From Escherichia coli (GTDB taxonomy: Bacteria; Pseudomonadota; Gammaproteobacteria; Enterobacterales; Enterobacteriaceae), in NCBI RefSeq assembly GCF_011045215.1, contig NZ_CP049201.1: a stretch of 64,000 nt of DNA; one strand, given 5' to 3'. Positions within the stretch are counted from its first letter, which is position 1; each line of letters starts with the position of its first letter. Below the pieces are notes generated by a model. The model was not told the origin of the DNA and did no database searches. It saw only the letters and a list, made by a program, of their open reading frames with translations. The position numbers and the translations under genes are program-made. Below are positions 5,252-10,613 of this stretch, piece after piece.

Positions 5252-6580
5252 TTAACGGCCTTTTGCCAGATATTGCTCCATCTCTTCTTCCGGCACCATT
5301 CCACCTCCCGTCGCCCACACCAGATGAGTGGCATTACGCAGTTGTTCTGCGCTGAAACCGTGCATCTGTTGGTAACTTACTGATGCACACACGCGCTGAG
5401 GTCCGGCCATACCCGCCAGTGCCGAAGGTTCAAGACGAATACCTTCTTCCTGCGCCAGCCAGCCAAGCATGTCATACATGGTTTGATCGCTAAGGGTATA
5501 GAAGCCATCCAGCAGACGCTCCATTGCCCGCCCGACAAAGCCTGATGCGCGACCAACTGCAAGGCCATCCGCTGCGGTAAGGTTGTCGATACCAATATCC
5601 TGAACAGAAATCTGATCGTGTAATCCTGTATGGACGCCTAACAACATACAAGGGGAGTGCGTTGGTTCGGCAAAAAAGCAGTGAACATGATCGCCAAACG
5701 CCAGTTTAAGCCCGAATGCGACGCCACCAGGACCACCGCCAACACCACACGGCAGATAGACAAACAGAGGGTTATCAGCATCGACGATACGGCCTTGCTG
5801 GGCAAATTGCGCTTTAAGACGCTGGCCAGCGACGGAATACCCAAGGAACAACGTGCGGGAATTTTCGTCATCAATAAAGAAACAGTTCGGGTCAGACTGC
5901 GCTGCTTTACGTCCTTCCTCGACGGCAACACCATAATCTTGCTCATATTCCACGACCGTAACGCCATGGCTGCGCAGTTTCGCTTTTTTCCATGCCCGGG
6001 CATCAGCAGACATATGCACTGTCACCTTAAAGCCAATGCGGGCGCTCATAATGCCGATTGATAACCCCAGATTTCCGGTTGAGCCCACAGCAATGCTGTA
6101 TTGGCTAAAGAACTGTTTAAACTCCGGAGAAAGCAGTTTGCTGTAGTCATCATCAAGCGTCAGCAACCCCGCTTCCAGAGCCGGTTTTTCTGCATGTGCC
6201 AGGACTTCATAAATCCCGCCGCGTGCTTTTATGGAGCCGGAAATGGGCAAATGGCTATCTTTTTTCAGTAACAGTTGCCCGCTGATCGGTTGTTGATATT
6301 CCTTTTCCAGCCGTTTTTGCATAGCCGGAATGGCAACCAGTTCTGATTCAATAATCCCCCCAGTGGTAGCAGTTTCAGGAAATGCTTTTGCCAGATAGGG
6401 TGCAAAACGGGATAAGCGCGCATGGGCGTCCTGAACATCCTGTTCGGTCAGGCCAACATAAGGTAAACCTTCAGCCAATGAGGTCGTGCCAGGATTAAAC
6501 CAGGTGGTTTCTTTAAGAGCAACCAGATCCTTTACCAACGGATACTGGGCGATGAGCGAGTTCATTTTAGCGTTTTCCAT
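5252..6580 (-). CDS. dsdA: D-serine dehydratase (PLP-dependent)
   Basis: 442-aa ORF starting [19 protein letters not shown]..., matches recalled DsdA. Confidence 0.93.
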
Positions 6581-6816: not shown

Positions 6817-7046
6817 AATGATCCATATTTATATTTTCTTCTCCAGGTTGGCGATGCCAGTTGGCATGTTTTACTTACTTGCCTATATGGTTACTCGTTG
6901 GCGAGAACAGAGGCGGAATTGGGGACAATTGTCCGGGAATTATTGTTATTTTTTATTGTATTGCCGTGTCAGGTGATAGGGCGTTGGATCTCGCCAGTGA
7001 CGTCTGTTTCTGCTACAGTGCCCGTTTTACGGCAAACGGCTTGGGT

Positions 7047-8042
7047 ATGGCTTCATTAAAGGATGTCGCACGCCTGGCGGGAGTGTCGATGATGACAGTC
7101 TCCCGGGTGATGCATAATGCAGAATCTGTGCGTCCTGCAACGCGTGACCGCGTATTGCAGGCAATCCAGACCCTGAATTATGTTCCTGATCTTTCCGCCC
7201 GTAAGATGCGCGCTCAAGGACGTAAGCCGTCGACTCTCGCCGTGCTGGCGCAGGACACTGCTACCACTCCTTTCTCTGTTGATATTCTGCTTGCCATTGA
7301 GCAAACCGCCAGCGAGTTCGGCTGGAATAGTTTTTTAATCAATATTTTTTCTGAAGATGACGCTGCCCGCGCGGCACGTCAGCTGCTTGCCCACCGTCCG
7401 GATGGCATTATCTATACTACAATGGGGCTGCGACATATCACGCTACCCGAGTCTCTGTATGGTGAAAATATTGTATTGGCGAACTGTGTGGCGGATGACC
7501 CAGCGTTACCCAGTTATATCCCTGATGATTACACTGCACAATATGAATCAACACAGCATTTGCTCGCGGCGGGCTATCGTCAACCGTTATGCTTCTGGCT
7601 ACCGGAAAGTGCGTTGGCAACAGGGTATCGTCGGCAGGGATTTGAGCAGGCCTGGCGTGATGCTGGACGAGATCTGGCTGAGGTGAAACAATTTCACATG
7701 GCAACAGGTGATGATCACTACACCGATCTCGCAAGTTTACTCAATGACCACTTCAAATCGGGCAAACCAGATTTTGATGTTCTGATATGTGGTAACGATC
7801 GCGCAGCCTTTGTGGCTTATCAGGTTCTCCTGGCTAAGGGGGTACGTATCCCGCAGGATGTCGCCGTAATGGGCTTTGATAATCTGGTTGGCGTCGGGCA
7901 TCTTTTTTTACCGCCGCTGACCACAATTCAGCTTCCACATGACATTATCGGGCGGGAAGCTGCATTGCATATTATTGAAGGTCGTGAAGGGGGAAGTGTG
8001 ACGCGGATCCCTTGCCCGCTGTTGATCCGTTGTTCCACCTGA
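7047..8042 (+). CDS. cscR: Sucrose operon repressor CscR (LacI/GalR family)
   Basis: N-terminal HTH MASLKDVARLAGVSMMTVSRV then periplasmic-binding-like domain; start chosen at internal ATG 7047 (331 aa) rather than ORF-track 6861. Confidence 0.85.
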   Translation: MASLKDVARLAGVSMMTVSRVMHNAESVRPATRDRVLQAIQTLNYVPDLSARKMRAQGRKPSTLAVLAQDTATTPFSVDILLAIEQTASEFGWNSFLINIFSEDDAARAARQLLAHRPDGIIYTTMGLRHITLPESLYGENIVLANCVADDPALPSYIPDDYTAQYESTQHLLAAGYRQPLCFWLPESALATGYRRQGFEQAWRDAGRDLAEVKQFHMATGDDHYTDLASLLNDHFKSGKPDFDVLICGNDRAAFVAYQVLLAKGVRIPQDVAVMGFDNLVGVGHLFLPPLTTIQLPHDIIGREAALHIIEGREGGSVTRIPCPLLIRCST

Positions 8043-8049
8043 TATTATG

Positions 8050-9483
8050 TTAACCCAGTTGCCAGAGTGCTCCATGTTGCACCACAGCCACTCCGTGGGA
8101 GGCATAAAGCGACAGTTCCCGTTCTTCTGGCTGCGGATAGATTCGACTACTCATCACCGCTTCCCCGTCGTTAATAAATACTTCCACGGATGATGTATCG
8201 ATAAATATCCTTAGGGCGAGCGTGTCACGCTGCGGGAGGGGAATACTACGGTAGCCGTCTAAATTCTCGTGTGGGTAATACCGCCACAAAACAAGTCGCT
8301 CAGATTGGTTATCAATATACAGCCGCATTCCAGTGCCGAGCTGTAATCCGTAATGTTCGGCATCACTGTTCTTCAGCGCCCACTGCAACTGAATCTCAAC
8401 TGCTTGCGCGTTTTCCTGCAAAACATATTTATTGCTGATTGTGCGGGGAGAGATAGATTGATGCTGCTGGCGTAACGACTCAGCTTCGTGTACCGGGCGT
8501 TGTAGGAGTTTGCCATTGCTCTCTGATAGCTCGCGCGCCAGCGTCATGCAGCCTGCCCAGCCTTCACGTTTTGAGGGCATTGGCGATTCCCACATATCCA
8601 TCCAGCCGATAACAATACGCCGACCATCCTTCGCTACAAAGCTTTGTGGTGCATAAAAGTCATGCCCGTTATCAAGTTCAGTAAAATGCCCGGATTGTGC
8701 AAAAAGTCGTCCTGGCGACCACATTCCGGGTATTACGCCACTTTGAAAGCGATTTCGGTAACTGTATCCCTCGGCATTCATTCCCTGCGGGGAAAACATC
8801 AGATAATGCTGATCGCCAAGGCTGAAAAAGTCCGGACATTCCCACATATAGCTTTCACCCGCATCAGCGTGGGCCAGTACGCGATCGAAAGTCCATTCAC
8901 GTAATGAACTGCCGCGATAAAGCAGGATCTGCCCCGTGTTGCCTGGGTCTTTCGCCCCGACTACCATCCACCATGTGTCGGCTTCACGCCACACTTTAGG
9001 ATCGCGGAAGTGCATGATTCCTTCTGGTGGAGTGAGGATCACACCCTGTTTCTCGAAATGAATACCATCCCGACTGGTAGCCAGACATTGTACTTCGCGA
9101 ATTGCATCGTCATTACCTGCACCATCGAGCCAGACGTGTCCGGTGTAGATAAGTGAGAGGACACCATTGTCATCGACAGCACTACCTGAAAAACACCCGT
9201 CTTTGTCATTATCGTCTCCTGGCGCTAGCGCAATAGGCTCATGCTGCCAGTGGATCATATCGTCGCTGGTGGCATGTCCCCAGTGCATTGGCCCCCAGTG
9301 TTCGCTCATTGGGTGATGTTGATAAAACGCGTGATAACGATCGTTAAACCAGATCAGGCCGTTTGGATCGTTCATCCACCCGGCAGGAGGCGCGAGGTGA
9401 AAATGGGGATAGAAAGTGTTACCCCGGTGCTCATGAAGTTTTGCTAGTGCGTTTTGCGCCGCATGCAATCGAGATTGCGTCAT
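8050..9483 (-). CDS. cscA: Sucrose-6-phosphate hydrolase / invertase CscA (GH32)
   Basis: GH32 N-terminal motif WMNDPNG and overall match to recalled CscA; start taken at MTQSRL (ORF-track start 9492 also possible). Confidence 0.88.
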   Translation of the reverse strand: MTQSRLHAAQNALAKLHEHRGNTFYPHFHLAPPAGWMNDPNGLIWFNDRYHAFYQHHPMSEHWGPMHWGHATSDDMIHWQHEPIALAPGDDNDKDGCFSGSAVDDNGVLSLIYTGHVWLDGAGNDDAIREVQCLATSRDGIHFEKQGVILTPPEGIMHFRDPKVWREADTWWMVVGAKDPGNTGQILLYRGSSLREWTFDRVLAHADAGESYMWECPDFFSLGDQHYLMFSPQGMNAEGYSYRNRFQSGVIPGMWSPGRLFAQSGHFTELDNGHDFYAPQSFVAKDGRRIVIGWMDMWESPMPSKREGWAGCMTLARELSESNGKLLQRPVHEAESLRQQHQSISPRTISNKYVLQENAQAVEIQLQWALKNSDAEHYGLQLGTGMRLYIDNQSERLVLWRYYPHENLDGYRSIPLPQRDTLALRIFIDTSSVEVFINDGEAVMSSRIYPQPEERELSLYASHGVAVVQHGALWQLG

Positions 9484-9517
9484 TTTAATCATCCTGGTTA
9501 AGCAAATTTGGTGAATT

Positions 9518-9593
9518 GTTAACGTTAACTTTTATAAAAATAAAGTCCCTTACTTTCATAAATGCGATGAATATCACAAATGTTAACGTTAAC
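9518..9593. promoter_or_regulatory. Two copies of the perfect 12-bp palindrome GTTAACGTTAAC in the cscA-cscK divergent promoter region; candidate CscR operators
   Basis: Palindromes at 9518-9529 and 9582-9593 in an AT-rich 206-bp intergenic region; LacI-family operators are typically palindromic. Confidence 0.45.
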
Positions 9594-9698
9594 TATGACA
9601 TTTTGTGATCGAATATGCATGTTTTAGTTAATCCATGACGATTTTGCGAAAAAGAGGTTTATCACTATGCGTAAGTCAGATGAATTTAAGGGAAAAAA

Positions 9699-10613
9699 AT
9701 GTCAGCCAAAGTATGGGTTTTAGGGGATGCGGTAGTAGATCTCTTGCCAGAATCAGACGGGCGCCTACTGCCTTGTCCTGGCGGCGCGCCAGCTAACGTT
9801 GCGGTGGGAATCGCCAGATTAGGCGGAATAAGTGGGTTTATAGGTCGGGTCGGTGATGATCCTTTTGGTGCATTAATGCAAAGAACGCTGCTAACTGAGG
9901 GAGTCGATATCACGTATCTGAAGCAAGATGAATGGCACCGGACATCCACGGTGCTTGTCGATCTGAACGATCAAGGGGAACGTTCATTTACGTTTATGGT
10001 CCGCCCCAGTGCCGATCTTTTTTTAGAGACGACAGACTTGCCCTGCTGGCGACATGGCGAATGGTTACATCTCTGTTCAATTGCGTTGTCTGCCGAGCCT
10101 TCGCGTACCAGCGCATTTACTGCGATGACGGCGATCCGGCATGCCGGAGGTTTTGTCAGCTTCGATCCCAATATTCGTGAAGATCTATGGCAAGACGAGC
10201 ATTTGCTCCGCTTGTGTTTGCGGCAGGCGCTACAACTGGCGGATGTCGTCAAGCTCTCGGAAGAAGAATGGCGACTTATCAGTGGAAAAACACAGAACGA
10301 TCGGGATATATGCGCCCTGGCAAAAGAGTATGAGATCGCCATGCTGTTGGTGACTAAAGGTGCAGAAGGGGTGGTGGTCTGTTATCGAGGACAAGTTCAC
10401 CATTTTGCTGGAATGTCTGTGAATTGTGTTGATAGCACGGGGGCGGGAGATGCGTTCGTTGCCGGGTTACTCACAGGTCTGTCCTCTACGGGATTATCTA
10501 CAGATGAGAGAGAAATGCGACGAATTATCGATCTCGCTCAACGTTGCGGAGCGCTTGCAGTAACAGCGAAAGGGGCAATGACAGCGCTGCCATGTCGACA
10601 AGAACTGGAATAG
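9699..10613 (+). CDS. cscK: Fructokinase CscK (ribokinase/pfkB family)
   Basis: 304-aa ORF with pfkB-family motifs (GGAPANVA near N-terminus, DSTGAGDAF near C-terminus). Confidence 0.88.
   Translation: MSAKVWVLGDAVVDLLPESDGRLLPCPGGAPANVAVGIARLGGISGFIGRVGDDPFGALMQRTLLTEGVDITYLKQDEWHRTSTVLVDLNDQGERSFTFMVRPSADLFLETTDLPCWRHGEWLHLCSIALSAEPSRTSAFTAMTAIRHAGGFVSFDPNIREDLWQDEHLLRLCLRQALQLADVVKLSEEEWRLISGKTQNDRDICALAKEYEIAMLLVTKGAEGVVVCYRGQVHHFAGMSVNCVDSTGAGDAFVAGLLTGLSSTGLSTDEREMRRIIDLAQRCGALAVTAKGAMTALPCRQELE

Follow-up and report, generated by a model that had tools for sequence, protein, structure and literature searches.

The closest described relative of the locus analysed here is the csc regulon of Escherichia coli EC3132 and W, in which the same element, two 12-bp inverted repeats plus cAMP-Crp sites between cscA and cscK, is reported in two papers (PMC11251922; PMC3938415). 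As both relay, the two copies of the inverted repeat in the cscA-cscK intergenic region were described as putative CscR operators by Jahreis et al. (2002), and a mutation in one of these putative operators raised expression (Jahreis et al., 2002, via PMC11251922). The operators are placed on either side of the -35/-10 region, with the downstream one overlapping the transcription start and a Crp-cAMP site adjoining the cscA -35 region, and the inverted repeats are stated to be conserved in five species (PMC11251922). The other account speaks of a bidirectional csc promoter with two cAMP-Crp sites and of distinct cscA and cscKB operator sites, the cscKB operator being subject to a recurrent spontaneous derepressing mutation (PMC3938415). 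The sources disagree on whether the mutated operator is that of cscA or that of cscKB (PMC11251922; PMC3938415), and repression of the csc regulon by CscR and dependence of its expression on cAMP-Crp are reported (PMC11251922; PMC3938415). A literature search for CscR mobility-shift, footprinting or motif data returned only general comparative work on the LacI family and nothing on direct binding of CscR to DNA. The 12-mer GTTAACGTTAAC, searched as text, matched only unrelated primers and cloning work, and the csc literature consulted, which covers five species, holds no discussion of an interplay between CscR and CRP at the distal site.

A like arrangement is known for the ScrR operators at the scrY promoter of pUR400, where two inverted repeats likewise bracket the -35/-10 region with the downstream one over the start, and where an upstream CRP site and a LacI-family repressor are also present (Cowan, 1991; Jahreis and Lengeler, 1993; both as summarised in PMC11251922). 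The scr system, in that summary, differs from csc in its non-orthologous repressor and operator sequence, its 14-bp repeats, its PTS-based nature and a promoter that is not divergent. The gal and lac control regions can also be set beside csc. In gal, the operator OE for a LacI-family dimer lies near -60, directly upstream of a CRP site at -41.5, and a second operator downstream, at +53.5, takes part in a DNA loop with the help of HU; GalR is a dimer and loops without a tail of the LacI type. The OE/CRP layout resembles that of csc, in which the second operator would, from the geometry derived below, lie at the transcription start. In lac, O1 and O3 flank the CRP site (at -61.5) and the promoter, on the same helical face and with a spacing of 92 bp, and LacI is a tetramer by virtue of its C-terminal helix; csc likewise has operators flanking a CRP site and a promoter, but CscR is without the LacI C-terminal helix.

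The window, by which we mean the whole 64,000-nt stretch of DNA that was analysed, carries the chromosomal csc sucrose regulon of E. coli, differs in nothing substantive from the loci of EC3132 and W, and represents another E. coli-type allele. The cscA gene, for sucrose hydrolase (a GH32 invertase; TIGR01322, 1.3e-143), occupies 8050-9483 on the minus strand when its start is taken from the RefSeq annotation, and the longest cscA ORF on that strand runs from 8050 to 9492. Of the control region proposed in the initial annotation, 9493-9698, the end at 9698 stands, whereas 9493 is the edge of the longest ORF, and the RefSeq start of cscA at 9483 places the intergenic region at 9484-9698. On the plus strand, cscK (9699-10613), for fructokinase (NF006957, 4.7e-152, above the curated cut-off), is followed by cscB (10685-11932), for sucrose permease, an oligosaccharide transporter of the MFS type (TIGR00882, 1.7e-178). 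In most E. coli genomes RefSeq calls the cscK product 'aminoimidazole riboside kinase', the NCBIfam assignment being fructokinase above cut-off, and in O157:H7 strain 1130 cscK is flagged as a truncated pseudogene.

The regulator gene, cscR, is convergent with cscA and gives LacI-family matches. Its mechanically called ORF starts with a TTG at 6861 and would encode 393 aa; since homology to the family sets in only at about residue 62, the likely cscR start is the ATG at 7047, which yields a gene at 7047-8042 on the plus strand and a product of 331 aa beginning with MASLKDVARLAGVSMMTVSR. The nearest solved structure to CscR is 6NDI (1.3e-113, ~334 aa). Beyond cscR lies dsdA (5252-6580, minus strand), and 466 bp separate these two genes.

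Within the intergenic region, the 12-mer GTTAACGTTAAC occurs as an exact palindrome at 9518-9529, the putative proximal CscR operator (O1, centre 9523.5), and at 9582-9593, the putative distal one (O2, centre 9587.5). The copies are 64 bp apart from start to start, with 52 bp between them, in exact accord with the positions that the initial annotation gave for a self-complementary 12-mer present twice between the divergent cscA and cscK genes. The sequence reads identically on both strands, with CG at its centre, can also be parsed as a tandem pair of GTTAAC hexamers, and lies, in both copies, within a 17-nt direct repeat, AAWTGTTAACGTTAACT. Its central AACGTT is common to several LacI-family operators. 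The window has no further exact copy, 100 dinucleotide-preserving shuffles of it yielded none at all, and 0.0036 copies per 64 kb would be expected from base composition. With up to 2 mismatches allowed there are 6 matches against 2.1 expected, so that only the exact pair stands out, the remaining closest matches having at least 2 mismatches and lying elsewhere in the window. The centre of O1 precedes the cscA start codon of RefSeq by ~40 bp; O2 is the sole operator near the cscKB promoter side and sits between two CRP-like boxes.

A third operator inside or beside cscR, cscA, cscK or cscB was sought at up to 2 mismatches to GTTAACGTTAAC and none was found; the likely cscK start region and the sequence downstream of it likewise hold none. 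For the comparison that the initial annotation had suggested, with a site preceding cscB or cscR, the window offers no candidate at this threshold, and there is thus no sign of cscR autoregulation through the 12-mer in E. coli. Matches with 3 mismatches at 7573 and 11952 were considered as operators and judged unconvincing.

Two CRP sites are predicted in the same region. CRP box 1 (TGCGAtgaataTCACA, 9563-9578, centre 9570.5) has 1 mismatch to TGTGA-N6-TCACA and lies, centre to centre, 17 bp from O2 and 47 bp from O1. CRP-like box 2 (TGTGAtcgaatATGCA, 9604-9619, centre 9611.5) is on the cscK side, 24 bp from the centre of O2, and in E. coli has 3 mismatches and one good half-site only. Measured towards cscA, exactly 41.5 bp separate the centre of box 1 from the first O1 base, a distance that would fit, though it is suggestive only, a CRP class II position at the cscA promoter. 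With box 1 at -41.5, the putative cscA -10 region would fall at 9531-9542 on the minus strand, where TATTTT (9542-9537) and TATAAA (9536-9531) are present. A consensus scan of 9400-9800 for sigma-70 promoters and terminators found none, and the empty promoter scan is as expected for a weak, activator-dependent promoter. On the cscK side, the -10 candidates picked by eye (GATTTT near 9640 and TATCAC at 9660) were not convincing. A block upstream of cscK, AAAAAGnGGTTTATCAnTnTGCGTAAG at 9650-9675, is conserved between Escherichia and Citrobacter amalonaticus and may contain the cscK -10 region or 5' leader elements.

Of 5426 complete E. coli genomes, 2663 carry the csc control region, at 95-100% identity, and variation within the species is therefore too low to be informative on its own, so the comparison was moved to loci in other genera. 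A search with CscR as query, limited to one genome per species, returned 80 loci, among which 73 (L001-L073) encode CscR relatives of 48-96% identity from ~20 genera: Escherichia, Citrobacter, Pluralibacter, Tatumella, Pectobacterium, Samsonia, Rosenbergiella, Rahnella, Providencia, Proteus, Enterobacter, Klebsiella, Raoultella, Serratia, Kosakonia, Erwinia, Yersinia, Silvania, Aeromonas and Gilliamella/Orbaceae. At each locus the csc genes were placed by tblastn and ~13 kb were then scanned for the 12-mer. The initial annotation had named conservation of the palindromes in other csc loci as a check on their function, and they are indeed found in csc-like loci of ~20 genera: almost all of the 73 loci have GTTAACGTTAAC at the csc promoter, with 0-1 mismatch, and exact copies away from this promoter are almost absent from the ~13 kb scanned at each.

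The spacing of the pair is 63 or 64 bp in 17 genera, and it is kept across differing gene orders. The pair is present where cscA diverges from cscK, as in E. coli; where cscA diverges from cscB, as in Rosenbergiella; where an operon of a cscB-like gene and cscA diverges from cscR, as in the Enterobacter/Klebsiella/Serratia type; and where cscA-cscK-cscB diverges from cscR, as in the Yersinia/Aeromonas type. Exceptions are found in Gilliamella (57 bp) and Proteus (69 bp), and loci of Providencia carry one site instead of two. Where a pair is present, the centre of the proximal operator mostly precedes the initial start codon of the operon on the cscA side by ~20-55 bp, the distal operator lies ~64 bp farther upstream, and the distance from its centre to the far-side gene is mostly ~106-146 bp. 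Since these neighbouring distances vary, insertions and deletions are tolerated in the adjacent DNA and not between the operators. When the loci of 17 genera are anchored on the operators, the operator columns carry ~2 bits each and the ~33 columns between CRP box 1 and O1 carry ~0 bits; a conserved length with an unconserved sequence indicates that it is the length of the spacer, and not its sequence, that is constrained. An alignment of Escherichia with Citrobacter amalonaticus gives a similar picture, in that neither operator varies, nor do the bases immediately flanking it, and substitutions gather between the two operators.

The predicted CRP boxes share in this conservation. At an offset of +15 from the distal operator, box 1 has at most 3 mismatches in 17 of 19 genera and at most 2 in 15, and box 2, at an offset of -26, has at most 3 in 15 of 19 and at most 2 in 11, against rates of CRP box matches in shuffled sequence of 0.3% at up to 2 mismatches and 2.6% at up to 3. 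The extended consensus of the operator across genera is AtGTTAACGTTAACAaT, and the region as a whole reads, towards cscA, TGtgAtct.gaTCaCA (the consensus of box 2), 10 nt, GTTAACGTTAAC, 3 nt, TGTGATTAaCATCa, a variable stretch and GTTAACGTTAaC; the boxes on either side of the distal operator are both similar to the CRP consensus. In the regulators, the recognition helix VS(M/L)MTVSR(V/A) is kept in all CscR relatives, a sample that may be partly selected for this helix by MMTVSRVM, one of the six peptide patterns used in the search.

We place at roughly 0.85 the probability that the two 12-mers are CscR operators within a compact, CRP-dependent divergent control region. They have what is characteristic of LacI/GalR operators, namely a palindrome in the ~12-20 bp range with a central CG step, a position in a catabolic promoter region with a LacI-family regulator gene, cscR, adjacent to it, and co-occurrence with orthologous regulators while the surrounding non-coding DNA diverges. 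The proposal in the initial annotation of paired operators for CscR as a LacI-family repressor is thus supported by the conservation among csc loci and by earlier work (Jahreis et al., 2002, via PMC11251922 and PMC3938415). The operator pair was already described, as putative sites, in 2002, and its recovery here is a correct but ordinary finding, to which the present analysis adds only the breadth of conservation and the fixed geometry of CRP boxes and operators.

A mechanism can be drawn from this geometry, in which the order of elements towards cscA is CRP-like box 2, O2, CRP box 1, a weak promoter, O1 and cscA. Each operator would most likely be bound by one CscR dimer. With CRP box 1 at the class II position of -41.5, O1 would span +1 to +12 of the cscA promoter, where bound CscR could block RNA polymerase directly. 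O2 would be centred near -58.5 and abut the CRP site, and CscR bound there might hinder CRP binding or the contact made by the polymerase alpha-subunit; the divergent cscKB promoter would, moreover, have no operator but O2. Adding 17, 41.5 and 5.5 bp gives 64 bp, which explains the conserved spacing so that no DNA loop is required. We tentatively suggest, while rating it well below even odds, that the composite of CRP box, distal operator, CRP box, weak promoter and proximal operator is an old module of fixed geometry, which has passed intact through at least 17 Enterobacterales genera, and Aeromonas as well, in three gene orders. CscR bound at its distal site would then act on both divergent promoters through interference with CRP or with docking of the alpha-subunit, and not by looping.

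A related possibility, on which we would likewise not wager, is that CscR acts in the manner of CytR. In that case CscR at O2 would work mainly through CRP, standing between two CRP dimers with centres 41 bp apart, competing or cooperating with them and so controlling both promoters. CytR sites are weak and need CRP, whereas the CscR operators are perfect palindromes, and box 2 is weak in E. coli, features which count against a close analogy. On the other side, most genera keep both CRP-like boxes at fixed distances (17 and 24 bp) from the centre of O2, no operator lies in the likely cscK start region or downstream of it, and the published accounts state that csc expression needs cAMP-Crp (PMC11251922; PMC3938415). 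An action of this kind would largely overlap with the best explanation, that of two CscR operators in a CRP-dependent control region; it is compatible with it and not exclusive of it.

Looping or cooperative binding, with two CscR dimers or a tetramer bridging O1 and O2 and enclosing the cscA promoter and CRP box 1, appears unlikely to us. Its appeal lies in the spacing, since 63-64 bp is strictly kept in 17 genera despite an unconserved intervening sequence and 64 bp at 10.5 bp per turn makes ~6.1 turns, which would put both operators on the same helical face. This spacing is, however, fully accounted for by the geometry of operator, CRP site and promoter, and the 57 bp of Gilliamella and 69 bp of Proteus are half-turn offsets that would place the operators on opposite faces, while the Providencia loci have one site only. 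The protein also argues against a tetramer of the LacI type, since residues 3-331 of CscR align to residues 5-329 of LacI, with nothing that matches the tetramerisation helix at 330-360, and the nearest solved homologue, 6NDI, is of similar length (~334 aa). Regions with more than one LacI-family site are common, and such sites are frequently read as a sign of cooperativity (PMC4052901). A loop is not needed to explain the pair, and we regard it as disfavoured and not as the simplest reading.

Despite the central AACGTT that the 12-mer has in common with operators of related proteins, it is highly improbable that the sites belong to Cra/FruR or another LacI-family protein with this core, or are a functionless duplication of an HpaI-type hexamer, and these readings were rejected on co-occurrence with cscR and on conservation, for the motif accompanies a CscR-like gene in ~20 genera and in three gene orders, occurs nowhere else in the window and tracks the conserved recognition helix, and mutation of an operator derepresses the regulon in the published accounts (PMC11251922; PMC3938415). 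The two 12-mers are accordingly best read as operators for CscR.

As a discovery the pair matters little, since the sites were described in 2002 and have since been used to explain derepressed E. coli mutants that grow fast on sucrose. The value of the analysis lies rather in the engineering of sucrose-fed production strains, for which the operators and CRP boxes form a tightly spaced, widely conserved unit that shows which bases to alter where csc expression is to be freed from CscR or from catabolite repression. With its conserved geometry, the region is also a clean natural system in which to test how CRP shares a divergent promoter with a dimeric repressor of the LacI family.

Some further observations concern individual lineages. 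In loci of Enterobacter, Klebsiella, Raoultella, Serratia and their relatives (L027, L029-L031, L034-L036, L038, L040-L041, L043, L045, L047-L054, L056, L058, L069 and L072-L073), a cscB-like MFS gene (38-41% identity) followed by a GH32 hydrolase gene (54-57%) is divergent from a CscR-like regulator (53-57%), and the same operator pair and CRP boxes are present; this csc-like locus is not the PTS scr regulon. In Proteus myxofaciens (L068) an extra exact GTTAACGTTAAC is found at 7027, in the few bases that separate cscR from the convergent cscA and with no promoter nearby. The Gilliamella loci L028, L033, L039, L042, L044, L064 and L071 contain a second near-consensus pair, at ~5820-5850 and 14 bp apart, between the cscB-like gene and cscR, which suggests a different, possibly autoregulatory, arrangement.

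More distant regulators with the same helix were also returned by the search. Loci L074-L079, from Lachnospiraceae and other Firmicutes MAGs, encode LacI-family proteins that are 25-28% identical to CscR and have an identical helix, VSMMTVSRVM. Related palindromes, GTTAGCGCTAAC and ATTAGCGTTAAC, lie ~30-230 bp upstream of the regulator gene in these loci, for example at 5773 and 5967 in L074. In these sites the outer half-site GTTA is kept, and the central bases and the hinge helix of the protein (SARSLA in place of SARKMR) differ together.
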